64,000 bases of DNA from an uncultured Chloroflexia bacterium (GTDB taxonomy: Bacteria; Chloroflexota; Limnocylindria; Limnocylindrales; CSP1-4), in assembly GCA_963768655.1 (NCBI GenBank), contig CAVYIM010000006.1:128001-192000 (forward strand), written 5' to 3'. Shown here in pieces: positions 48,036-61,739 of the stretch; the first letter of the stretch is position 1, and every line of letters starts with the position of its first letter. A program made the translations under genes and the position numbers. The notes beneath the pieces were generated by a model. It did not search any database, was not told where the DNA came from, and saw only the letters and a program-made list of their open reading frames with translations.

Positions 48036-51000
48036 GTGACAGTCGCGCCGAATGACTTCGTCCACTTGCACCTCCATTCCGAGTTCAGCCTGCTCGATGG
48101 GCTCGGGCGCATCAACGAGCTTGCCGACCAGGGATCGGCGCTCGGCTTCGACGCGATGGCGATCACCGACCACGGCGCCCTCTACGGAGCCGTGGCGTTC
48201 GTCCAGGCGACGACCGCGCGGGGCATCAAGCCGATCGTCGGGGTCGAGACCTACGTGGCCCGGCGAAGCATGCGCGACAAGGAGGGCAAGGCCGACAGCC
48301 AGCCCTTCCACCTCGTCCTGCTGGCCGAGAACTGGGAGGGCTACCAGAATCTCTGCCGTCTGATCACCGACGCCCATCTTGACGGTTACTACTACAGGCC
48401 GCGGATCGATCATGAACACCTGGCGAAGCATTCGAAGGGCCTGATCGGCCTGTCGGCCTGTCTCAGCGGCGAGGTGGCCAGGGCGCTCGAGGTCGACGAC
48501 TGGGACCTGGCCCGCAAGACCGCCGGCGACTACCGCGACATCTTCGGCCGGGACCGCTTCTTCCTCGAGTTGCAGGACCACGGCCTGCCCGACCAGCGGG
48601 TGCTCAATCCCAAGCTGCTCCGCCTCGCCCCCGAAGTCGGGCTCGACCTCGTCGTCACCAACGACCTGCACTACGTCCGCCGGGAGCAGCACGACGCCCA
48701 CGACGTGCTGCTGTGCGTGGGTACGGGCAGCAATCTGGACACGCCCGGGCGGATGCGGTTCGACTCGAACGAGTTCTACCTGAAGTCGGCGGCCGAGATG
48801 GCCGCGCTCTTCCCGGACAACCTCGACGCCATCCGTCGCACCCGTGCCATTGCCGAGATGGTCAGTTTGAAGCTGCCGTTCGGCCAGCTCCGGATTCCGT
48901 CATTCCCGGTCCCCGAGGGCGAGACCATCGAGAGCTGGCTGCGCAAGGAGTGCCAGGCCGGCCTGGCCCGCCGCTACGGCACCGTCACGCCCGAGCTCCA
49001 GGCCCGCCTCGACTACGAGCTCGATGTCATCTGCCGCATGGGCTACGCCGGCTACTTTCTGATCGTGGCCGACTTCACGAAGTTCGCCCGCGACCAGCAC
49101 ATCGCCATCACCGTCCGCGGCTCCGCGCCCGGGTCCATCGTGACCTACACCCTGGGCATCACGCCGGTCGACCCGATCCACTACCAGCTGCCGTTCGAGC
49201 GCTTCCTCAATCCCGACCGCGTGACGATGCCTGATATCGACGTCGACTTCGAGGACGGGCGGCGCGAGGAAGTCATCAACTACGTCAGCCGCAAGTACGG
49301 CGCCGATCACGTGGCCCAGATCATCACCTTCGGCACCATGCTCGCTCGGGCCGCCATTCGTGACGTGGCCCGGGTCGTCGGCATGAGCTACGGCGAGGGC
49401 GACCGCATTGCCAAGGCGGTCCCGAACCAGCTCGGAATCAGGCTGGACGAGGCGATCGAGATGAGCCCGGTGCTCAAGGAGATGTACCAGAGCGAGCCGC
49501 CGGTGCATCGCGTCATCGAATTCGCCAGGCAGCTGGAAGGCGTGGCCCGGAACGCCTCGACACACGCGGCCGGCGTCGTCATCAGCCGCGAGCCGCTGAC
49601 CGAGCTGATGCCTCTGCAGCGCGCGACCAACTCAGACGCGGTCATGACCCAGTACGAGATGCATGGCGTCGACGCGCTGGGCCTGCTCAAGTTCGACTTC
49701 CTGGGGCTCTCGAACCTGACCATCCTGCGCCAGGCGGTCGACCTGATTCGCGAACACCGCGGGCAGGAGATCGACCTCGAGAAGATCCCGCTCGACGACT
49801 CGAAGACCTTCGAGCTGCTGGCCTCGGGCGAGACGACCGGCGTGTTCCAGCTCGAGTCGGCGGGAATGCGGCGCTACATCCGTGAGCTCCGGCCGAGCAC
49901 TGTGTTCGACCTGGCGGCCATGGTCGCGCTCTACCGCCCCGGCCCGATGGACAACATCCCGGCCTACATCCGGCGCAAGCACGGCGAAGAGAAGGTTACC
50001 TACCTGCATCCGCTCCTCGAGCCATATCTCAATCGAACGTACGGCGTCTTCGTCTACCAGGAAGACATCATGTCCGCCTCGACCGCCCTGGCCGGCTTCA
50101 CCGGTCCCGAGGCCGACATGCTCGGCTACGCGATCCGCAAGAAGAAGGCCGCTCTCATGAACGAGATGCGCCACAAGTTCGTCACCCAGGCCGCCGAGCG
50201 GGGCGTCAAGCCGCAGGTGATCGACGCCGTCTTCGCCGCCTTCCAGCCCTTCGAGCGCTACGGCTTCAACAAGGCTCACGCCACCTGCTACGGGCTGATC
50301 GCTTACCAGACGGCGTACTTGAAGGCGAACTACACGGTCGAATACATGACCAGCGTCCTGACGGCTTTCCGAGACAACGAAGAGAAGGTCGCCGCCGCCG
50401 TCGCCGAATGCAGGCGCCTGGGCATCGAAGTCAGGCCGCCCGACGTCCACCGCTCGTTCGTCGAGTTCACGGTCGAAGACGACGCCATCCGGTTCGGCCT
50501 GCTGGCTGTCAAGAACGTCGGCGAGGGCGCGATCGAATCGATCATCGCGGCGCGTCAGGCCGATGGCGACTTCCGGTCGCTGGCCGACTTCTGCGCCCGG
50601 GTCGATCTCCGGCTGGTGAACCGGCGCGTCCTCGAGTCGCTGGTCAAGGTTGGCGCGATGAATCGGTTCGGGCATCCGGCCCAGCTGCTCGAGGCGCTCG
50701 ACGACGCGCTTGCCGCCGGCCAGGCCGCCCAGCGCGACCGGACCAGCGGCCAGACGGCGCTCTTCGACATGGGTTCGTCGCCGGAAGCCCTGGAGCGACC
50801 CCTGCCGGCGGTTCCCGAGGCGCTTTCTCGCGAACGGCTGCGCTGGGAGAAAGAGCTGCTCGGGCTGTACCTGTCGGAGCATCCGCTCGGCGCGCTGGCG
50901 GAGCAGATCGCCCAGTACGTGACCGCGTACTCCGGGGACCTCAAGGATGAGTCGCTCGATGGCCAGCGCGTCGTGATGGGCGGCATCGTCACCGGGCTGC

Positions 51001-52001
51001 GGACGGTGGTCACGCGGAGCAAGGAGACCATGGCCGTCGCCACGCTCGAAGACCTGCAGGGGACGCTCGAGGTGGTCGTCTTCCCGCGGATGTACGGAAC
51101 CTCCGGCGGCACGTTCGCGGAGGGCGCGATCCTGCTCGTGGCCGGCCGGGTCGACCATCGTGGCGAGGAGGCGTCGTTGCTCGCCGACGCGGTCTGGGTC
51201 TGGGAGGATGCCGCCGCCCGTGGCCCGGCGGCGATTGCCGGAGAAGTTGCCGCGGGGGATCGTGGGAGGGGCGGCAGCCGACGCTGGTCACCGGGGAGCG
51301 GCGCAGGGAGCGGCTCGGGGAGTGGCAACGGGAACGGTAACGGCGGCGGCAACGGGAACGGCTACGGCAACGTCCACCCGAAGCCCACCGCCGGCCCGGC
51401 TCCGGCCGCGCCGCCTCTGCCCATCACGCCGCCCGCGCCCGTCGCCCCCGTCGCGCCCATCGCCCCCGTCGCGCCCAGAGTTCGCGTCTCGCCGCTGCGG
51501 GGCGGTGGAGTGACCGTGCTCGATGCGCCGCCGTCACCCGCGCCGGGCTCCGCCGCGTCCCTGCCGCCCGCGCCGGGAGTGGCTGCGTCGCTGCCGGCGG
51601 AGCCCCTCTCGTCCGCGCCTGCCCCTAAAGACCTGGCTGCCCTGGCGCCCGACCGCGAGGAGCCGCCGCTGCCCGATGAGGCGCGAGACGTTGCGGCCCG
51701 TGCATCCGCGGCGCCCACGACCCCGCTCGAGGCTCCGGAAACGGGCGTCCTCCAGGTACGCTTCACCAGGGGCGCGGACACCGACCGCATCGTGTGGGCG
51801 ATGGAGGAGCTGCGGGCGATGCTCAAGGAACATCCCGGCTCGACACGCGTGGTCTTCCACATCCCGGGGCCCGGTGGAGCAACGCTGCCGCTCGAGATCC
51901 GCAGCGGCGTTGCCTACGACGCCGAGCTTCTCTCTGAGGCCCGTCGGCGCCTGGGGGAGGGTCTGGTCCGCCTCGAGCTCTCGGTCGGGGGCAGGGCGTG
52001 A
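48036..52001 (+). CDS. dnaE: DNA polymerase III alpha subunit
   Basis: FVHLHLHSEFSLLDG PHP domain, RGSAPGS, MPDIDVDF, LLKFDFLGL, YGFNKAH and an OB fold. Confidence 0.98.
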   Translation: MTVAPNDFVHLHLHSEFSLLDGLGRINELADQGSALGFDAMAITDHGALYGAVAFVQATTARGIKPIVGVETYVARRSMRDKEGKADSQPFHLVLLAENWEGYQNLCRLITDAHLDGYYYRPRIDHEHLAKHSKGLIGLSACLSGEVARALEVDDWDLARKTAGDYRDIFGRDRFFLELQDHGLPDQRVLNPKLLRLAPEVGLDLVVTNDLHYVRREQHDAHDVLLCVGTGSNLDTPGRMRFDSNEFYLKSAAEMAALFPDNLDAIRRTRAIAEMVSLKLPFGQLRIPSFPVPEGETIESWLRKECQAGLARRYGTVTPELQARLDYELDVICRMGYAGYFLIVADFTKFARDQHIAITVRGSAPGSIVTYTLGITPVDPIHYQLPFERFLNPDRVTMPDIDVDFEDGRREEVINYVSRKYGADHVAQIITFGTMLARAAIRDVARVVGMSYGEGDRIAKAVPNQLGIRLDEAIEMSPVLKEMYQSEPPVHRVIEFARQLEGVARNASTHAAGVVISREPLTELMPLQRATNSDAVMTQYEMHGVDALGLLKFDFLGLSNLTILRQAVDLIREHRGQEIDLEKIPLDDSKTFELLASGETTGVFQLESAGMRRYIRELRPSTVFDLAAMVALYRPGPMDNIPAYIRRKHGEEKVTYLHPLLEPYLNRTYGVFVYQEDIMSASTALAGFTGPEADMLGYAIRKKKAALMNEMRHKFVTQAAERGVKPQVIDAVFAAFQPFERYGFNKAHATCYGLIAYQTAYLKANYTVEYMTSVLTAFRDNEEKVAAAVAECRRLGIEVRPPDVHRSFVEFTVEDDAIRFGLLAVKNVGEGAIESIIAARQADGDFRSLADFCARVDLRLVNRRVLESLVKVGAMNRFGHPAQLLEALDDALAAGQAAQRDRTSGQTALFDMGSSPEALERPLPAVPEALSRERLRWEKELLGLYLSEHPLGALAEQIAQYVTAYSGDLKDESLDGQRVVMGGIVTGLRTVVTRSKETMAVATLEDLQGTLEVVVFPRMYGTSGGTFAEGAILLVAGRVDHRGEEASLLADAVWVWEDAAARGPAAIAGEVAAGDRGRGGSRRWSPGSGAGSGSGSGNGNGNGGGNGNGYGNVHPKPTAGPAPAAPPLPITPPAPVAPVAPIAPVAPRVRVSPLRGGGVTVLDAPPSPAPGSAASLPPAPGVAASLPAEPLSSAPAPKDLAALAPDREEPPLPDEARDVAARASAAPTTPLEAPETGVLQVRFTRGADTDRIVWAMEELRAMLKEHPGSTRVVFHIPGPGGATLPLEIRSGVAYDAELLSEARRRLGEGLVRLELSVGGRA

Positions 52002-54242: not shown

Positions 54243-54267
54243 TGGTGCCGACGGCGGGAGTCGGCAC
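54243..54267. repeat. Distal att site: 19-bp copy of the tRNA 3' end with an inverted core GTGCCGAC-N7-GTCGGCAC
   Basis: 54243-54261 is identical to 61653-61671. A perfect 8-bp inverted repeat (54245-54252/54260-54267) surrounds a 7-bp spacer. Confidence 0.93.
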
Positions 54268-54312
54268 GGATAGGGTCCGTTCGTGCTCAGGAGCACCCCG
54301 AAAAGGGCCAGT

Positions 54313-54335
54313 GTGTTCCCATGGGTGTTCCCATC
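54313..54335. repeat. Probable integrase arm-type site (left)
   Basis: gtgttcccatgggtgttcccatc, a tandem GTGTTCCCAT repeat, identical to 61537-61559. Confidence 0.8.
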
Positions 54336-54361
54336 GCGTCCGGAAATGGCGCGCGGAGCCC

Positions 54362-55510
54362 CTACGACGTCCGTCTCAACGCACTGTCGACGCGGTCCGC
54401 CGCATCCCGCAGGCTCGCGTCCAGGACGCCGGTGTAGTGGTGTGTCATGGCCTCGGCGGCATGGCCCAGGGCCGCCATCGCTACGCGCTGGTGAACGCCC
54501 TGCGCCGCCAGGACGGTCGCGAACCCGTGCCGGAGATCGTGCAACCGGACATCGCCAATAGCTGCTGCCAGCATCGCGTCGCGGAAGTGGCGGTCGAGCG
54601 TGTTTGGATGCCAGGCGAAGAGTCGGCCGTCGATCGGTGCGGGCTGCGTTTCGCGCCAGGCGAGGTACTCGCGCACGGCCTCGACGGCGAGCGCCGGCAT
54701 AGCGACGGTTCGGACGCTGCTCGCGGTCTTCGTTTCCCGCAGCCGCGCACCCTGGCCTGGCACGCGGCCGTACTGGCCGTGCACCGTCAGGATCGCTGCC
54801 TCGAGATCGACGTCGCCGGCCCGAAGGCCGAGGATCTCCCCGCGGCGGAGGCCGCAGGCGCCCGCAAGCAAGACGATCGGGTAGAGCCTGGTCCGTGCGG
54901 TGGCGTCGAAGATCGCGCGGAGCTCGTCGGGCCCGATTGTCGGGACCTGCCGCTTCTCGGCCGCCGGAGGCGCGTCGACCAGGGCGGCGACGTTGCGCGC
55001 CACCAGACCCTGGGCCTGGGCATAGCGAAGGGCGGACGACAACCGAACCAACGTGTGAGCACCAGGGCCGCCCCAGGATCGGACAGCCGCACGGACGTCC
55101 TCGACCGTTAGTTCGTGCAGTCGGATCGCGCCGAGCGATGGGCGGATTCGTAGCTTCGCGTCCAACTCGTACGCCTCAAGCGTCAGTGGGCGGACGCGGT
55201 CCTTGCAGCCCTCAAGCCAGGAGTCGACAACCTCAGCTACGGTCGTATCGATCGAGCGCAACGAGACTCCCGACTCCTGCAGCTCGACGAGGTCGCGCAG
55301 AAGCTTCGTGCCGGCCCTTTCCGCCTCTCTCTTCGTCGGATACCCCGCCGTCCGGGGTCGTCGCCGCGTGCCGGTCTCGTCGACGTAGCTGCCCTGCCAG
55401 CGCCAGCGGCGCACACGGAACTTGTCCGTCGACTCCACGACGGAGCCCTGGCCGCGGTGGCGGGTTTGCTTGCCATGCTTGCCGTTTGGGTTCGGCATGT
55501 CTTCCATCAT
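54362..55510 (-). CDS. Tyrosine recombinase/integrase
   Basis: GLRRGE, TKT, HDLRH, LGH and the catalytic Tyr (THHYT); N-terminal arm-binding-like GQGSV...W region. Confidence 0.96.
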   Translation of the reverse strand: MMEDMPNPNGKHGKQTRHRGQGSVVESTDKFRVRRWRWQGSYVDETGTRRRPRTAGYPTKREAERAGTKLLRDLVELQESGVSLRSIDTTVAEVVDSWLEGCKDRVRPLTLEAYELDAKLRIRPSLGAIRLHELTVEDVRAAVRSWGGPGAHTLVRLSSALRYAQAQGLVARNVAALVDAPPAAEKRQVPTIGPDELRAIFDATARTRLYPIVLLAGACGLRRGEILGLRAGDVDLEAAILTVHGQYGRVPGQGARLRETKTASSVRTVAMPALAVEAVREYLAWRETQPAPIDGRLFAWHPNTLDRHFRDAMLAAAIGDVRLHDLRHGFATVLAAQGVHQRVAMAALGHAAEAMTHHYTGVLDASLRDAADRVDSALRRTS

Positions 55511-55673
55511 CCTCCAGTAGATTGGCGAGACGGTCGCGGCGCGCATACACGACGCGCTTGCTGATACGCGTGCAGGCTTCGGGGTGCCGACGCATCAGGA
55601 CGCGGACGTGGGCGGGCGGGATGCCGAGCTCGCCGGCGACCTGGGCGACCGAGAGCAACGGTTGATCGGTCAT
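55233..55673 (-). CDS. Excisionase-like HTH protein whose C-terminal part overlaps int out of frame
   Basis: LLSVAQVAGELGIP winged-HTH start; located between rep and int; ATGA overlap with the rep stop. Confidence 0.7.
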   Translation of the reverse strand: MTDQPLLSVAQVAGELGIPPAHVRVLMRRHPEACTRISKRVVYARRDRLANLLEDDGRHAEPKRQAWQANPPPRPGLRRGVDGQVPCAPLALAGQLRRRDRHAATTPDGGVSDEERGGKGRHEASARPRRAAGVGSLVALDRYDRS

Positions 55674-57136
55674 GCAGAACTCGTGGACGGACCCGATGGC
55701 CCTGATCTTGCACTGAGCGTCACCTGCACCCGCAGGCGCCGTCGAGGATCCACCGACTTGATGACCGTACTGGACCTGGCACTGACTCTCAATGTCGGGC
55801 TCGCTCGAAAGCTCGCCGCCACCGCGCGCTCGGCCGGGCTCAAGCCCGATCCGGCGTAGTGGAAGCTCCGCCGGATGACGACCTGGTCGCCGACGGCCCG
55901 GGCACGGATCTGAGTGAGCCAGGGATCGGCCTGGGCTCGATACTGCGCCCGGACGGCTCGTAGCGCTCCGAACGTCACCGAGTAGCGTCGGGCCTTGGTC
56001 AGGAAATGACCACGAAAGCCCAGGCTGTGGGCCCAGCGGGGGCTGATCCGCCAGGCTGAGCGCATCAGGGCCCGAGCATGATCGGATAGGTCGGCTCGTT
56101 CGATCACTCCCTCAACCCGGATCCGTCGATCGAGACCACCACCGGCTTGGGCGTCCTTGGTGGCGTATTTCGCGAGGTAGCCCGCGACGCCGGCTCCCTG
56201 CCCGTCGCCGGCGCGCGGGCTACCGGTGTTCAGCGGTCTCGTGTCGATCTGGTCACCCCAGCGGATCATGACCTCTCGACCACCCGGTCCCGCCACCGTG
56301 ACCGCTACGCGCGCCGCGGTGCGGGCGACGGCTCCCGCTAAGCGCTCCGCCGTCGCTCCTCCCGTCGGCGCGGTGTCGGGACCGTCGGGGCCGTCGAGGC
56401 GGATGACCGCATGGAGGTGGACCGATCCACGAGCCTGGAACTCGGCGACCTTGGCATAGGCGACACGGACCCCGGTGCGCAGGGCCGCAACGCTAAGTCC
56501 GCACAACGCCGCGAGCTCGCGCGGCAGGTACGTGACCGTGCGCCGCCAGAGAGCTCCGAGATTCGCGTTCCACAAGGCCGCGGCCTCGTAGTCGTAGCAG
56601 TCCGGACAGAGGGCCTGGCCGATCCGTGGATCGTTATCGGCATGAGGCTCCATACAGCGGAGCGAGACGCCATGCTCGCAGGTAGCAAGACCACCGGGCT
56701 CGCAGGGCCGTTCGCCACCAGCGTCGACGACCCTGCGATGCACCGTGCCGAACGATGGTGCGGTCAACGTCGCGAAGACGAGCGGGTGCGAGGCAACCGA
56801 GGGCGAGACGCCTCGGGCCTCATCACCCGCCAATCCAGCCGCCACGAGGAAGTAGGCGTCGCGGCGATACCGCTCGGAGCAGGGGGGACATCGTGACTCG
56901 CGTCGATTGCCACAGGCAACCAGAACGAAGCCTGGAGCCTCCGCTCTGGTCGACCGCCGGGCAAGGACTGCGCCTGTCCTTGCCGAGACGGCGACCGCAT
57001 CGCCTTCGAGGCGGATCGGCGACGTGCACCCGCCGGTCCGCCGGATCAGCTCGACGACTGCAGGTGCCCCGGAGCCGTAGCGGCGTGAGAGGACGGCCAG
57101 GGGCTCGAGCGGGGATGGGGACGCAGACTCGACCAC
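55670..57136 (-). CDS. RepSA-type rolling-circle replication initiator
   Basis: GGCTSPIRL, CGNRRESRCPPCS, FATLTAPSFG, CPDCYDY, the HUH motif (HLHAVIRLDG), YLAKYATK and WAHSLGFRGHFLTKARRYS. Confidence 0.92.
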   Translation of the reverse strand: MVESASPSPLEPLAVLSRRYGSGAPAVVELIRRTGGCTSPIRLEGDAVAVSARTGAVLARRSTRAEAPGFVLVACGNRRESRCPPCSERYRRDAYFLVAAGLAGDEARGVSPSVASHPLVFATLTAPSFGTVHRRVVDAGGERPCEPGGLATCEHGVSLRCMEPHADNDPRIGQALCPDCYDYEAAALWNANLGALWRRTVTYLPRELAALCGLSVAALRTGVRVAYAKVAEFQARGSVHLHAVIRLDGPDGPDTAPTGGATAERLAGAVARTAARVAVTVAGPGGREVMIRWGDQIDTRPLNTGSPRAGDGQGAGVAGYLAKYATKDAQAGGGLDRRIRVEGVIERADLSDHARALMRSAWRISPRWAHSLGFRGHFLTKARRYSVTFGALRAVRAQYRAQADPWLTQIRARAVGDQVVIRRSFHYAGSGLSPAERAVAASFRASPTLRVSARSSTVIKSVDPRRRLRVQVTLSARSGPSGPSTSSA

Positions 57137-57145
57137 GGCCTACTC

Positions 57146-57571
57146 CTAGGCGGTCTGCTCGGGGCGACGGAGCTGCTGGGGGACCTGGTTCTTCGGGATG
57201 GCGGCGCGAACCGCCGTCGCCCGGAACGAATAGGCGAGCCTTGGCCGAGAGCCCGAGACGTCCACGTAGGCCGTCACGGTCAGCCCCTCGAACGCGACCG
57301 CCGGGAACGGCGAACCTGAAGGCGCCTGCGGCAGCACAGGCGGCGTCCGCGAAGCGATCTTGACCCGGACGACCTTGGTTCTCGCGTCGGGATCGGCGTC
57401 GAACACCGAGATCACCCATACAGGCAACCCCGAGTCGCGATCGTGGGCCTGGACCTTCTGCTCGCGCGTCGAGGCCTCGAAGTCGACGACCTGTTCGACG
57501 CCGCCAACGGCATATGCCCCGTGCGGAAATGCCTGGTCCATGCTGATGGGGATGTGTCTACCAAGCGCCAT
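57146..57571 (-). CDS. SCO3933-like 'plasmid replication, integration and excision activator' family protein
   Basis: AFPHGAY..V..V.DFE...Q..D..SGLPVW...D.DP...VKI....PV.P...V.FEGLTVTAYV...LAYSFRA pattern; AAGGAG RBS. Confidence 0.8.
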   Translation of the reverse strand: MALGRHIPISMDQAFPHGAYAVGGVEQVVDFEASTREQKVQAHDRDSGLPVWVISVFDADPDARTKVVRVKIASRTPPVLPQAPSGSPFPAVAFEGLTVTAYVDVSGSRPRLAYSFRATAVRAAIPKNQVPQQLRRPEQTA

Positions 57572-57587
57572 GTCTGTCTCTCCTTGT

Positions 57588-57612
57588 CTGATTTCGACCA
57601 CACCGAAATCAG
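57588..57612. promoter_or_regulatory. 9-bp inverted repeat just upstream of the RBS of the element's core operon
   Basis: ctgatttcg-accacac-cgaaatcag. Confidence 0.5.
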
Positions 57613-57729
57613 CCGACGCGTTGGGCACAGCTATCGCCGGAAGCCCGCGTCAAGCGGCTCGAAAAGTGGGGGCGACCCTCGGGTGTTTCCCGGATGCCTT
57701 ACCGGGACCTGGGCCGGTCGCCGAAGAGG

Positions 57730-57758
57730 ACGCTAGGCCGACGGATCGGGAGCGTCAA
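57730..57758 (-). promoter_or_regulatory. Sigma-A type promoter for the activator-rep-xis-int operon
   Basis: Minus strand TTGACG, 17 nt, TAGCGT. Confidence 0.6.
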
Positions 57759-58163
57759 GGGGTTCAGCGTACGATTCCACGTACCATTTGCGGCACACGG
57801 TGGCCGCGCTTGCCCCTGTCAGCGCACGAACGCCATTCCTGCTGTCGCCGGCAGCCGGCGGCCACGAACCTTGATCGCAGCGGACATGGGACCGCCCAAG
57901 GCGCAGCCGTCGGCCTACCCGAGGCCGCGAACCTCGAGGGTGATGACTCGGCAGATCGCTGCGACCGGCGAGTATGGCCCGGGACGAGGCCACCGGGCGA
58001 GTTCGCCTCTTATCGCCGCGATCCGCGGTTGGGAAGCACACGGAGGGGGCGGGGGCTTGTTACGAGTTTCTCTACTGCATCAAGGCTGTCCCGCTCCTTC
58101 GATCCTCGCCTTGGCGCAGTCGAACGACGGATTGGCACCCGAGGGCGTCCTTGTCCAGGCCGA

Positions 58164-58627
58164 CTAGATAGGCGGGTTGCGGGGGTCTCGCACGTAGAAA
58201 GCAAGGCGCCGACTCGCTCGGGCCGGCCATCAACCGTCGCAGAGATGGTGTAGGCATCGAACTTCGGGAACTTGATCTGCGTCTCGAATGCGAGTGGTAG
58301 ACGCATCTTGGCGCCCTTTTCCAACGTCGGCGGTCGACCAGTCTTGAACGCCAACGAGAACGACGGTACAACGGCCGTTCCGTCCGTATCTTCGAAGGTG
58401 ACCTCAAGGGTGTGCTGGTCGTCGGTTTCCAGGTAAGGGATCAGTACCCCGCACGCAATGTGCAGCGGGATTGCCCCTTCAAGGCTAGTCGCGAAGATAT
58501 GGTCCCACGCCCCGCCCATGATGTAGAGCTTCCCGTTTAGGACCTCTGCGCGATCGGCCAGTATGAGAAACTCGACATCGGCGTGAGCCACCGGCAGCCC
58601 GGAAGCTCGGGACCGTGAAGTAGGCAT
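58164..58627 (-). CDS. DUF6941-like protein, probably with a 1-bp deletion near 58220
   Basis: FLILADRAEVLNGKLYIMGGAWD...FPKFDAYTI..TVDG. The plausible end ASRRLAFYVRDPRNPPI* lies in the -1 frame (TAG at 58166-58164). Confidence 0.7.
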
Positions 58628-58645
58628 TCTAGGTACCTTCGTATC

Positions 58646-58671
58646 ACTGGTGTAAACTTCGCTTACACAGT
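58646..58671. promoter_or_regulatory. Palindromic operator in the divergent DUF6941/TA promoter region
   Basis: ACTGGTGTAA-acttcgc-TTACACAGT (GTGTAA/TTACAC inverted repeat) in an AT-rich gap. Confidence 0.6.
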
Positions 58672-58701
58672 ATACAGCACGCTGAACACGGAGGCGGGGC
58701 C

Positions 58702-58980
58702 GTGGCAAGACCGTTCATCGATGAGTTGCGCTTGGCGGGCGCGGAGGATGAACTATCGCGGCACCAGGTGTCCGTCGACGAGGCGCTGGAGGTATCTTGG
58801 AATACTCCGCGGTTCTTCCGGGACAAGGTTCAGGGTCGGCAGCTAATGATCGGAAAGACGGACGGAGGAAGGTTGCTTACAGTCGTAGTTGAACCGACCG
58901 ATACACACGGGGCATGGGACGTCGTCACTGGCTGGGACTCAAGCCAGGGAGAAAGAACAGCATGGCAAAACGCAAAGTAG
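58702..58980 (+). CDS. BrnT-like (RelE-fold) toxin
   Basis: HQVSVDEALEV, IGKTDGGRLLTVVV and VVTGW..S..ER pattern; 92 aa; toxin-first gene order. Confidence 0.75.
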   Translation: MARPFIDELRLAGAEDELSRHQVSVDEALEVSWNTPRFFRDKVQGRQLMIGKTDGGRLLTVVVEPTDTHGAWDVVTGWDSSQGERTAWQNAK

Positions 58981-59438
58981 CGCCCTCCGGGGACCAGAAC
59001 GACATGGACCTAGAGCAAATCGACGTCGAACTCAGAAACCCGAGCGTGGTCTTGTCCGTCCGCCTCGACGGCGACACGGCCAAGGCGCTCCATCAGCTCG
59101 CTCGCAAGCGTGGCGAACGCGTATCAGAGGCACTTCGCGAGGCGGTCGTCGCCTGGGTCGCGTCGGCAGCCGCGGAAGCCGAACCCGTCTATCGGGCGAC
59201 CTACCTCAACAAGGTCGTGGCTGTCAGCAGCCACTCGGTCCGAAATCGAGGAACTTGGGCAACAGCAACGCCCGTTCGAGTCTGGCCTACCAGAGGAAAC
59301 CTGGCGGACCTCGTCGGCCGCCGCACAACCGCTCTTGCGAACCGCTTAGGCGCGACGGCCCCGGCGTGGCAGCCCAACGTCAACCCTGACCTCCAATTTG
59401 TGAGGACGGGCCGTTTCAGGCAGGACAAGAACGGCTAG
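58962..59438 (+). CDS. Ribbon-helix-helix (CopG/BrnA-like) antitoxin with a long C-terminal extension
   Basis: VVLSVRLDGDTAKALHQLARKRGERVSEALREAV RHH motif; overlaps the toxin 3' end. Confidence 0.75.
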   Translation: MAKRKVAPSGDQNDMDLEQIDVELRNPSVVLSVRLDGDTAKALHQLARKRGERVSEALREAVVAWVASAAAEAEPVYRATYLNKVVAVSSHSVRNRGTWATATPVRVWPTRGNLADLVGRRTTALANRLGATAPAWQPNVNPDLQFVRTGRFRQDKNG

Positions 59439-59447
59439 CGGCGGCTC

Positions 59448-60155
59448 CTAGCCGACGAGCTCCGTGATGTCAGGGTCTGCCCAAAGACGATAGAGGCCAA
59501 CGGTGCGGCGAGCCGGGTGGGGCCACCAGGATCCCACCAGTACCGCGACGCTCACCTTCAGTGGCAGAGCGGCGTTCTTGGGCCAGTCGACCGCCCGAAC
59601 GGAAGCAGTCCGGTCGGCGAATTCAGCGACCTGCCTGCCCCGGTCGTCGAAAAGCCTGAGCCGGCGGGGACGCCCATGGCTTCGTTCAAGCGCCCACAAC
59701 GACCCTGCATCGGCCCGCATCAGCTCAACGGGGGGCACAGTGGGAAGATCCGAGCTGAGGCGAAGCCTGTCGGGCGCAAGGACGAGTTGGAGCAACTGTC
59801 TCGGTCCTCGATGCCGAAGCTGCCGAGCCGCCCATGCCGCCGAAGCGACCGCGAGTGCGAGCACCACAAGGTCGAGGAGGTTCGGGTGAGCGAGACCGGC
59901 CACTCCAGCGACCGCCAGGACTGCCGCAATGCCGACCGCCGAAGAGAAGTTGTACCAGCTGAGTCGCGGTGGCACCCAGGTGGCGGTAACGGTGGCAGTC
60001 CATGCGGGGCAGTCGTCCGGTACACCCTCCCAGCCCGCGTCCGAGAACATGGGCACTTCCTCACCCAGGATGTTCTTGGTCATGAGCGTGTGGTGGAGGG
60101 ACCGCAGCCACGCCCTGATCCGGCCGGGCTCGTCCTGAAGCGTTGGTTTACTCAT
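59448..60155 (-). CDS. Hypothetical membrane protein (2 TM plus a beta-rich C-terminal domain)
   Basis: 235-aa ORF with GAGG RBS and two hydrophobic helices. Confidence 0.65.
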   Translation of the reverse strand: MSKPTLQDEPGRIRAWLRSLHHTLMTKNILGEEVPMFSDAGWEGVPDDCPAWTATVTATWVPPRLSWYNFSSAVGIAAVLAVAGVAGLAHPNLLDLVVLALAVASAAWAARQLRHRGPRQLLQLVLAPDRLRLSSDLPTVPPVELMRADAGSLWALERSHGRPRRLRLFDDRGRQVAEFADRTASVRAVDWPKNAALPLKVSVAVLVGSWWPHPARRTVGLYRLWADPDITELVG

Positions 60156-60423
60156 CGTGAACCTCGGCGTTCATGGATGCTGTCCATCAGGCTAGCGGGT
60201 GCACAAGTACTCCGTCGGCCTCGATCTGCTGATGCCCTCCCCGATCGAGTGATCGGAGAGAACCACGGACGAGAGCTAACGCGTCATGCGGAGCGCACCA
60301 AGCGCAGCGGTGGCCTGGCGCCGCCCATCGTCACCAGGACGCGGCCCGGTAGAGACGTGGGATCCAGATCCCCGACGAGCGGGTTAGCCTTGGAACCGAC
60401 TCCTCTCGCGCCCACCAATTCCC

Positions 60424-61374
60424 TCAAATCCCTCCACTCGCCGTAACGCCGGCGCGAAGCGTCGACCAGAGTGTTTGACATTCATTGGGATCGAGCCCAC
60501 TTGTCCAAATGTGGATGTGCTGGCGACCTCTTCCGGCGACACGCAGGACCGGTCCGCGCTTCGATTGCTCGGCGCTCGCAAAATAGGACCAGGGCAACCA
60601 CGAGTCTGGCAGGACCAAGTAGCCGGTCCTGTACACGGCCAGTTCGCGGCTCCGGTCCTGGCGCTCTCCGATCGTCGATAGCGCTGCCATTAGCCACGGA
60701 AACGCCAACAAGAAAGCCGCCACGACGAGACCATTGGGCGTCCAAAGTGGGTCTTGAAGAGCGAACGCGCAAAGGCCTATTGCGACGCCCGCGACCAACA
60801 CCTTCCACCCAAACTCACTCGCCCGGATCTGCACCAGCGTCCACGTTGACACTCGACCCATGCTGAACGTCAGGACCGGTTGGCCCGCGTCCAAGGGCAG
60901 AATCGGTTCCTGGGCTGGAAGAGGCTCACCGAGCAACCGCTCCAAGACCTCTCGCTGCCCGGCCCCAAGCACTCGCAGTGGGATAAGTAGCGGTGGGCAG
61001 CAATGCTGGGGGATCACAAGAAAGCCACCCTTGGCGAGCGGCCGGCCAAAGCGCGTCGCAGGGAAGCGGCGCGGCTGTGAGCCCTCCGACTGAACAGACA
61101 CGGCGCCAGGGCTCACGACAATTCTTGTCTCTGAACGCGTCCGCAACGCATTTCGGACGATCAGGATCAGCAGCGCGGCTACGTACAACATCCCCAGTCT
61201 CGCCGGCTCGGCCGGTGGCGTAAGGCATACTAGGATCAACGCGACGACCAGGACCATGAGGCGACGGTTTGTGCCGCCGAACCTCAGACTGGCTCGCAGG
61301 CGCTCCGCCATGTCGAGTCGATAGGCCAGTTCCACCCGGTCGCCTGCCTCGTTCGCCAAGTCGCCAGTCCCCAT
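60424..61374 (-). CDS. Hypothetical membrane protein with two (2TM + soluble) modules, YcxB-like
   Basis: 316-aa ORF; TM pairs followed by 'LLIPLRVL' and 'LPWSYF' segments. Confidence 0.6.
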   Translation of the reverse strand: MGTGDLANEAGDRVELAYRLDMAERLRASLRFGGTNRRLMVLVVALILVCLTPPAEPARLGMLYVAALLILIVRNALRTRSETRIVVSPGAVSVQSEGSQPRRFPATRFGRPLAKGGFLVIPQHCCPPLLIPLRVLGAGQREVLERLLGEPLPAQEPILPLDAGQPVLTFSMGRVSTWTLVQIRASEFGWKVLVAGVAIGLCAFALQDPLWTPNGLVVAAFLLAFPWLMAALSTIGERQDRSRELAVYRTGYLVLPDSWLPWSYFASAEQSKRGPVLRVAGRGRQHIHIWTSGLDPNECQTLWSTLRAGVTASGGI

Positions 61375-61536
61375 TCAGATGGGAGGAAAACCACGGGCCA
61401 CGATCATACAGACCGGCGGCCTGGCCGAATTGCCTCCTGGTCAAATCGGTTGCCCTGCGCGTGAAAGCCATCGACAAGGATGGACGTGGTTGCATTCGAC
61501 GGCAGTCCAGCGAGCATCCTGGCGTCCCCGCGCCGG

Positions 61537-61559
61537 GTGTTCCCATGGGTGTTCCCATC
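61537..61559. repeat. Probable integrase arm-type site (right)
   Basis: Identical 23-mer to 54313-54335 in the same orientation, ~95 bp inside the tRNA-side att. Confidence 0.8.
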
Positions 61560-61652
61560 TCCGCCGGATTACGGCAGGAACGGGTCAAATGGGACCGCTT
61601 CCAGGCCCGATTTGAGCACGAATCGGGCGTTATCGAGACAGGGGGAGGGGGT

Positions 61653-61739
61653 TGGTGCCGACGGCGGGAGTTGAACCCGCATGACCTCACGGCCACTCGA
61701 TTTTGAGTCGAGCGCGTATGCCAGTTCCGCCACGTCGGC
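61653..61739 (-). tRNA. tRNA-Leu(CAA) with encoded CCA
   Basis: The reverse complement GCCGACGTGGCGGAACTGGCATACGCG CTCGA CT CAA AA TCGAG...GGTTCAACTCCCGCCGTCGGCACCA gives a cloverleaf with a long variable arm. Confidence 0.97.

Follow-up and report, generated by a model that had tools for sequence, protein, structure and literature searches.

A RepSA-type element without a transfer gene in Chloroflexota and its possible dependence on a helper conjugative element

How an integrated element that carries the replication module of an actinomycete integrative and conjugative element (AICE) and no transfer gene can move outside the Actinobacteria is the question raised by a 7,410-bp element in a 64,000-nucleotide stretch of contig CAVYIM010000006.1 (the window) from an uncultured Chloroflexota bacterium. 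Its att sites, its gene order, the lack of tra, its family throughout the host genus, a sibling core shared across species, a promoter box shared with other mobile DNA and a CTTGAT motif at the edge between core and cargo were read from the sequences or found with standard tools. We lean towards reading it as an AICE-type replication module without transfer gene that is likely a mobilizable satellite, switched on by a Phd/YefM regulator of a co-resident integrative and conjugative element (ICE) and leaving via the secretion system of that ICE. In the following, G-numbers denote genomes of the host genus, L-numbers loci or regions of relatives and C-numbers contigs of a genome.

The element is bounded by a 19-bp exact direct repeat (54243-54261 and 61653-61671) with no other copy in the 3.37-Mb genome. 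On the right, the repeat coincides with the 3′ end of a tRNA-Leu(CAA) gene, which was also the sole match of the Rfam scan. The features of the two ends are:

54243-54261, unstranded: att core at the integrase-side junction, a genome-unique 19-bp exact copy of the tRNA-Leu 3′ end
54313-54335, unstranded: paired 10-mer repeat, predicted arm-type site of the integrase, with 23 bp identical to 61537-61559
61537-61559, unstranded: paired 10-mer repeat, predicted arm-type site on the cargo side, kept in five of seven occupied loci
61653-61739, minus strand: tRNA-Leu(CAA) (ARAGORN; Rfam RF00005), its 3′ 19 bp being the second att core

Among 30 genus loci at tRNA-Leu(CAA), 21 were empty, seven had an end of the element's type, one held a small insertion and one came without flank; at the empty sites, an LCP gene lies 69-217 bp from the core. 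With its own recombination module, integration at a specific site and a site that is empty in relatives, the element agrees in these points with an integrative mobilizable element (IME), and the 7.4-kb element between att repeats proposed in the original prediction was confirmed. In L151, L152 and L156, tRNA-Leu(CAA) carries the cargo-side end of the element with other cargo, no Rep and an absent or truncated integrase, i.e. stripped derivatives. In L194 and L157 (G433), an element of the window's type at this tRNA gene is split by IS21-like insertions, with an ICE pilin operon directly past one of them.

The host, which had been supposed to be probably no actinomycete, was placed in Chloroflexota: the closest RepSA relatives were all found among the 32 Chloroflexota-titled loci of the 79 loci returned, some of them titled Candidatus Limnocylindrales, and rows of the same genus nest among Chloroflexota-titled loci in the RepSA tree described below. 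The genome is 88.6% complete and contains three RepSA copies and one chromosomal ftsK.

The core genes lie on the minus strand in the order act, repSA, xis-like, int, with 9 bp between the act stop and the Rep start:

57146-57571, minus strand: Pra/SCO3933-like 'activator' (act), predicted single-stranded DNA (ssDNA)-binding protein with a fold of the oligonucleotide/oligosaccharide-binding (OB) type (AlphaFold2 model, pLDDT 89)
55670-57136, minus strand: RepSA-family HUH rolling-circle initiator with H240-x-H242 and Y320/Y324 (PF20199, E 1.9e-131)
55233-55673, minus strand: likely excisionase with N-terminal helix-turn-helix (HTH) and a tail overlapping int out of frame (PF12728, E 0.022; phrog_66, E 0.0026)
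54362-55510, minus strand: tyrosine integrase of 382 aa with R...HxxRH...Y catalytic motifs (PF00589, E 1.6e-21)

The histidine and tyrosine motifs of RepSA are (nearly) invariant across 61 sequences, and its score of 396 bits is below the 700-bit cut-off of the NCBIfam equivalog for pSAM2 RepSA. Integrase copies in L046, L048 and L054 are 93-94% identical. The HTH matches of the xis-like protein are weak and below cut-off; its frame overlaps int by 278 bp (55233-55510) in another frame, and its length of 146-148 aa is shared with L046 and L054. Among 12 element open reading frames (ORFs), scanned along with three flanking genes, no Pfam match to FtsK or GntR was obtained. The proposed single operon from activator to integrase, with neither FtsK/Tra nor a GntR/Kor regulator, was thereby upheld in gene order and content.

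Of the features by which AICEs are recognised (Ghinet 2011), the element has an integrase with att sites and a replication protein of the RepSA/RepAM/Prim-Pol group; a Tra protein with FtsK/SpoIIIE domain within the element and an actinomycete host are lacking. It resembles AICEs of the pSAM2/pMR2 type (pra-tra-rep-xis-int; PMC3218068, PMC2440964) in its RepSA-family HUH initiator, the Pra-like gene in first and xis-int in last position, the integration at a tRNA 3′ end and the pC194-type nick motif, and its basal relatives keep XRE, NUDIX and HD genes. Unlike these AICEs, it has no Tra or Kor/XRE gene, resides in Chloroflexota (AICE modules have been described as confined to Actinomycetales; PMC3218068) and has a promoter box in common with an ICE encoding a type IV secretion system (T4SS). 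Neither pSAM2 nor pMR2 was among the matching plasmids.

The lack of tra is a property of a whole family. A RepSA match above the cut-off was obtained in 28 of the 51 genomes of the genus, and strong matches were confined to the host genus among 401 genomes of the class. A hidden Markov model of FtsK built from the loci, some of which have short flanks, matched none of the 32 Chloroflexota-titled loci versus 29 of the 47 actinobacterial ones; the closest relatives are thus without tra as well. The alignment gap between act and rep is 14-48 bp in 29 of the 31 loci with both genes. In a quick RepSA tree of 81 rows, from which ten partial or frameshifted Reps and one duplicate were left out, a branch with SH-aLRT 99 separates the 34 Chloroflexota or same-genus rows from all others. 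An actinobacterial origin of these elements is suggested, only as an inference because the quick tree is unrooted, without outgroup and without approximately unbiased (AU) test. Tra-less RepSA loci also occur in Actinomycetota (10/47, each with at least 5 kb upstream), and Frankia elements without tra or rep have been noted (PMC3218068). Of the suggestion of a class outside Actinobacteria, the Chloroflexota clade without Tra therefore stands, and its restriction to non-actinobacterial hosts does not. L088 and L101 had also been taken for Tra-less actinobacterial loci and were dropped from the count when Tra matches were found.

To the explanation that the element is a remnant of an AICE, decaying after the loss of tra and now passed on vertically, we give hardly any weight. 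Tra-less elements have been classed as remnants or possibly mobilizable (PMC3218068, PMC2440964), and Rep is split by frameshifts in nine of the 29 copies examined, including those on contigs C3 and C9 of the window's genome. However, the median ratio of non-synonymous to synonymous substitution rates (dN/dS) is 0.14 for act (28/29 copies intact) and 0.19 for rep (20/29 intact), which favours a genus-wide family under selection over a single deletion derivative. The assembly splits the chromosomal ftsK (C7:170744-171275) as well as both sibling repSA genes (C3:512141-513440, C9:289270-290567), which may be assembly indels, and some of the frameshifts may therefore be read errors. Furthermore, elements delimited by att sites were recovered from 16 of 40 regions. 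They measure 5.5-10.9 kb, sit at several tRNA genes, encode either a tyrosine or a serine recombinase and differ in cargo without relation to one another, which also speaks against a remnant.

A sign of movement comes from the copy on C9 and its counterpart in G014. Their act-rep segments are 99.3% identical over 1,743 nt and their 4.2-kb cores 96.6%, while identity between the ftsK genes of the two hosts is 81.3% and neither cargo nor flanks can be aligned. Unless a bin error is involved, this contrast is the pattern of a recent transfer. Over 392 non-independent pairs, the identity of the elements hardly follows that of their hosts (Spearman 0.13). Taken together, these data largely refute inheritance as a remnant. 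The genome also contains, at C2:55809-57907 beside tRNA-His, Rep-less cargo that is 75-83% identical to that of the RepSA element in G014. Smaller elements, in which no act was found, are those of L024, L026, L065 and L066: besides RepSA and a serine recombinase, they have one short ORF, and L024 and L065 have an origin-like motif.

Evidence on how the element may be switched on was obtained from the DNA upstream of act:

57730-57758, minus strand: predicted core-operon promoter with −35 TTGACG, 17 nt, −10 TAGCGT, followed by a conserved leader of ~160 nt
57767-57786, minus strand: paired-GTAC box, two 8-mers with 12-bp period, 8 nt upstream of −35, predicted Phd/YefM-type binding site (34.3 bits)

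The assumption of a promoter-led operon agrees with the conservation of the pattern TTGAC-17-TAGCGT in 23 of 30 copies, from which the promoter is predicted; a generic sigma-70 scan, on the other side, returned 0 sites. The promoter-leader block is 69-71% alike to the promoter-leader stretch of the ICE PRTRC operon in two ICE-like loci. An interpretation of this block as Frpo or single-strand origin was dropped, as ssDNA folding of the origin and promoter regions was no better than that of shuffles (z −0.29, −0.44).

With a matrix built from 15 RepSA promoter strings, five sites of at least 29 bits were detected in the 3.37-Mb genome. Three of them are training sites, and the other two lie on C5 in a Replic_Relax island, one before its relaxase and one before its xis-like gene; further sites scored 20.4 or less, with a shuffle maximum of 21.8. 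In an ICE-like element of G020, the box precedes the phd-phd-virB2-like-prgI-Tad pilus operon (33.4 bits), the virB4-M23/SLT-virD4-like-relaxase operon (36.2 bits) and the PRTRC operon (24.3 bits). It also occurs at matching operons in G303, G417, G433, G423, G429, G014 and G416, and a smaller island of G424 has it before virD4. The exact pattern was found at 39 sites in 26 of the 51 genus genomes (reversed control: 0), a stricter pattern in five of 201 family genomes, all of the host genus, and the box in none of 46 actinobacterial loci. Of 48 act-bearing Chloroflexota sequences, training sequences included, 37 have only the box, six only XRE, five neither and none both; in the quick, unrooted tree, XRE/NUDIX/HD-type elements are the first branch of the main lineage. 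A box shared between helper-type operons and the excision/replication promoter of a satellite is, at the sequence level, the arrangement of SGI1 and mobilizable genomic islands (MGIs). The C5 island (C5:511500-519500) lies at tRNA-Ser(TGA) and comprises integrase, Replic_Relax relaxase and xis-like gene with the two shared boxes; no coupling protein or T4SS gene was seen in it, and it is likely a second type of satellite.

The candidate helper was found in G020 (C6, ~440000-481600; L162, L279, L328) and also in L194 and L281-L284; G433, G020, G303 and G014 contain the ICE together with a satellite. It encodes a Tad/Flp pilus cluster, VirB2-like protein, PrgI, VirB4, a VirD4-like protein, Replic_Relax and PRTRC, with Phd-domain genes at its head, and pieces of it adjoin tRNA-Arg(TCG) in three genomes. 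The pilin operon starts with PF02604 Phd/YefM-domain genes (Phd1 and Phd2, G020:C6 480.6-481.3 kb) without adjoining toxin gene. The box stands before five of six ICE phd operons and as a variant before the sixth, and at least two GTAC occur within 200 bp upstream in 17 of 19 phd loci (genome mean 0.39). The cores of YefM sites are TGTACA at a distance of 12 bp, those of Phd sites GTAC at 13 bp, and both proteins repress (PMC1802561). Like such antitoxin operators, the box has two GTAC-core sites 12 bp apart; unlike them, it recurs upstream of −35 on numerous promoters of mobile elements, and the Phd genes stand first in a pilin operon without toxin gene next to them. A Phd2 query matched 23 of 51 genus genomes. 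In one RepSA lineage (L025), which has no box, a divergent phd of its own sits immediately ahead of act. Small islands (L163, L290, L349-L360) carry a lone Phd gene divergent from a virD4-like gene and a relaxase, a serine recombinase and GTAC-rich intergenic DNA, and could supply a regulator in trans.

From this we consider it probable that Phd-domain proteins of the helper bind the paired-GTAC box and, given binding, somewhat likelier that they activate than that they repress. Activation is favoured because the box lies upstream of −35 and because three copies persist integrated in a genome without this Phd. In a decidedly unlikely alternative, the box serves as a repressor site or is recognised by a stress regulator of the host, and satellites and ICE respond in parallel to a single host signal with no switch from helper to satellite. 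The promoter alone is close to the housekeeping consensus, known Phd/YefM proteins repress, and the genome has two other PF02604 genes, all of which would suit such a regulator; yet the ICE Phd queries do not detect these two (E 0.14 or worse), no host gene has a site of at least 21 bits, and neither the position of the box, which is not over −10, nor the three integrated copies fit it.

The best reading of these data, drawn by analogy to SGI1 and the MGIs, is an AICE-derived satellite that may have shed tra as well as its own regulator and become part of a helper ICE's regulon. Without helper, the act-rep-xis-int operon would be quiet and the element would stay integrated. Helper Phd-domain proteins would bind the box and activate the operon, Xis and Int would excise the circle, and RepSA would nick CTTG/AT and, with the OB-fold Act acting like HelP or a single-stranded DNA-binding protein (SSB), make single-stranded copies. 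RepSA would double as relaxase, and the strand would go through the coupling protein and T4SS of the helper; Rep initiation and termination at the nick site would in addition reshuffle the cargo. As to its history, an actinomycete AICE would have entered the genus and lost tra, and one branch would have swapped the XRE/NUDIX/HD block for an ICE-related promoter block. A bolder version, which we regard as doubtful, makes the Phd/YefM protein the master activator of a Tad-pilus T4SS ICE whose operator was captured by a guild of satellites, one of them being a Tra-less actinomycete element for double-stranded DNA transfer with RepSA as ssDNA relaxase, Pra as HelP-like factor and the nick site as point of cargo exchange.

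The role given to Act in this scheme departs from its name. What backs the label 'activator' of the original prediction is a weak match to NCBIfam SCO3933 (E 9e-4, 19 bits versus a cut-off of 80; 25 of 99 homologues match SCO3933) and one relative named 'plasmid replication, integration and excision activator' in its source record. No Pfam family was matched at E 0.1, hence there is no DUF961 sequence match, and a search of PDB sequences with the Act profile gave no match. The AlphaFold2 model from 99 sequences is all-beta (pLDDT 89), while single-sequence folding was poor (pLDDT 46). Its best fold match is SAG0934 (Z 7.1, root-mean-square deviation 3.9, 93 aligned), with which SSBs of bacteria (Z 6.9-6.0) are level; OrfM of ICESt3 follows at Z 5.6, and all matches are below the caution level of the tool (Z 8). 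Foldseek likewise listed SSBs first, with E above 0.02. We infer from the model that Act is probably an OB-fold ssDNA-binding replication accessory and not a classical transcription factor, and the label was not retained as a description of function. SAG0934 is Orf22 of Tn916, a HelP homologue, and the corresponding gene order is helP-conQ-nicK (PMC3542172), compared with pra-tra-rep in AICEs (PMC3218068). Like HelP of ICEBs1, Orf22/23 of Tn916 and OrfL/OrfM of ICESt3 (PMC3542172, PMC12614216), Act is thus a small predicted OB-fold protein heading an accessory-(FtsK-like)-initiator module; unlike them, it has no Pfam sequence match, its Z-score is tied with ordinary SSBs and its partner is a HUH Rep instead of MobT. 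HelP-type proteins are characterised by stimulation of PcrA/UvrD and a requirement in rolling-circle replication, and helP plus nicK has sufficed for replication. The main text of PMC12614216 does not mention AICEs or Actinobacteria. The OB-fold model makes the mode of action of Pra-family proteins directly testable.

Several observations weigh against mobilisation by the ICE. The candidate helper has a coupling protein of the VirD4/HerA type, whereas the few known mobilisations with rolling-circle replication (RCR) initiators as relaxases used TcpA (PMC5704250), and the characterised Phd and YefM repress at sites over −10 (PMC1802561). The VirB4 query matched only seven of 51 genus genomes, three of them at full length, and the genome of the window, as far as it is complete, has no detectable VirB4, VirD4 or ICE-type Phd; the search for a helper Tra in it returned only the chromosomal ftsK. 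The ICE has no defined ends in these data, and binning can put mobile DNA into the wrong genome. In the window, the box departs from the consensus at two positions, and spacings in multiples of a codon are common for paired GTAC by itself (42 with a period of 12 bp). The low, tied Z-scores of Act also count here. The box appears not to be needed for spread, because box-less Tra-less relatives (G431b, G020a) have cores that are 92.3% identical in hosts that are 83.4% identical. Finally, the circular form expected in the original prediction was not seen: no attP junction (61652 to 54262) was among the rows listed in six runs, which covered contigs of relatives only.

Part of this evidence would fit an unlikely course in which the signal of the helper regulator, or its release, triggers excision and replication with no use of the T4SS, and spread occurs by transformation, vesicles or generalised transduction. 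A shared box shows co-regulation only, the coupling protein is not of the TcpA type, box-less Tra-less relatives appear to move too, and helper VirB4 is rarer than the satellites (7 vs 28 of 51 genomes). Against such a course, the operons marked by the box are exactly those for pilin, T4SS-relaxase and PRTRC, along with further relaxase islands, as would be expected of a transfer regulon, and neither RepSA nor the origin motif was found in viral contigs or phage records. The earlier proposal of a satellite mobilised by a helper ICE or phage accordingly survives in its conjugative half, for which the shared box speaks, and gained no support in its phage half.

A phage satellite, or an AICE borrowing an FtsK-type Tra or host FtsK in trans, is very improbable. 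Cores with int, xis, rep and SSB genes resemble satellites, and FtsK is present in every genus genome, which count in its favour. However, a PHROGs scan of nine element ORFs gave no capsid family, no capsid or packaging gene was found in the element or in 73 proteins of relatives' elements, and no PF03237 terminase in the genome, so that the element, with no match in viral collections either, lacks what defines phage satellites similar to phage-inducible chromosomal islands. Extra FtsK-domain matches above 50 bits outside the chromosomal gene occur in only two of 51 genomes (G122, G303). Among candidate circles, L025 has terminal repeats but ends in tRNA-like sequence and was rejected, as it reads like an integrated copy whose sequence breaks off at the att sites. 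L236, L263 and L271 have several tRNA-Pro att cores in a row, beside recombinase ends and with cargo between them, which fits tandem arrays as well as circles; in L263, an origin motif 168 bp from an att core marks a Rep-less mini-element.

A candidate origin for RepSA is a conserved motif at the core/cargo edge:

58056-58084, minus strand: predicted double-strand origin, a conserved 29-nt block with 5′ CTTGAT nick-type motif

CTTGAT is the nick site of the pC194 family (PMC2440964). The pattern matches 62 metagenome contigs; in 24 of the 33 origin-bearing contigs with at least 1 kb downstream, act, rep, HD, NUDIX or XRE follows there, and related motifs adjoin actinobacterial RepSA loci. Among 62 distinct origin copies, 101 pairs, which are not independent, reach a likeness of at least 90% on one side; in 99 of them this is confined to the downstream side, and the identity ends 0-4 nt before TTGA. 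As 99%-identical cores meet unrelated DNA one base upstream, the sequences suggest that Rep itself may join new cargo at the CTTGAT site. In RCR plasmids, Rep termination occurs at nick-like sites. The element combines a HUH Rep with a conserved nick-type motif and has no T4SS gene, and a use of Rep as relaxase is putative. An orphan origin motif with CCTGAT for CTTGAT and no Rep nearby is located at C8:81426-81452.

An integrase, an RCR initiator as putative relaxase and variable cargo are also found in Streptococcus IMEs with RCR initiators (MobT, Rep_2, PHA00330, Viral_Rep; PMC5704250), 35 of 118 of which have no coupling protein (PMC5704250). The element differs from them in its phylum, in a candidate helper with VirD4-type instead of TcpA coupling protein and in RepSA, which is not among the families named in the available part of that source. 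With SGI1 and the MGIs triggered by AcaCD or SetCD (PMC5704250), it shares a helper's regulatory box before satellite excision/replication genes; unlike in these, the box is of the paired-GTAC type, the candidate regulator has a Phd/YefM domain, the element keeps its own nicking enzyme, and the link is known here from sequence alone. New here are the OB-fold model of Act, the CTTGAT core/cargo edge and the paired-GTAC box shared with ICE operons. In the literature, largely open-access, nothing was found on Chloroflexota elements with RepSA, on Pra having an OB fold or on a conjugation regulator of the Phd type; PMC12548467 proved to have no bearing on the subject, and no record on the box was retrieved by sequence or word look-up. 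Tra-less copies set aside as remnants elsewhere appear here as an active, selected family in another phylum with varied cargo. If the regulatory link is true, it would mean the conversion of an element for double-stranded DNA transfer into a T4SS satellite and a new role for a Phd/YefM protein as conjugation switch.

The remaining features of the element lie between promoter and tRNA gene:

57953-58035, minus strand: conserved HD-gene remnant, within the HD gene of L051-type elements; HD is intact in XRE/NUDIX/HD-bearing relatives
58010-58627, minus strand: cargo, DUF6941 protein (PF22091, E 5.9e-15), its frame continuing into the origin region
58702-59438, plus strand: cargo, likely type II toxin-antitoxin pair, BrnT-like at 58702-58980 (PF04365, E 5e-4, below cut-off) and ribbon-helix-helix at 58962-59438 (PF01402, E 1.6e-5)
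59448-61374, minus strand: cargo, two predicted membrane proteins without family (59448-60155 and 60424-61374)

The membrane ORFs had no Pfam match over cut-off and no NCBIfam, PHROGs or PADLOC match, and PADLOC gave no match for the cargo as a whole. The G+C content is 63% in the cargo vs 68% in the core. Across the family, cargo includes restriction-modification, TIR, ECF sigma and secreted proteins. Outside the element, at 48036-52001, the window encodes a host DnaE-like protein (named from its sequence) in which a long Gly/Asn- and Pro-rich linker towards the C-terminus is followed by a small extra domain.

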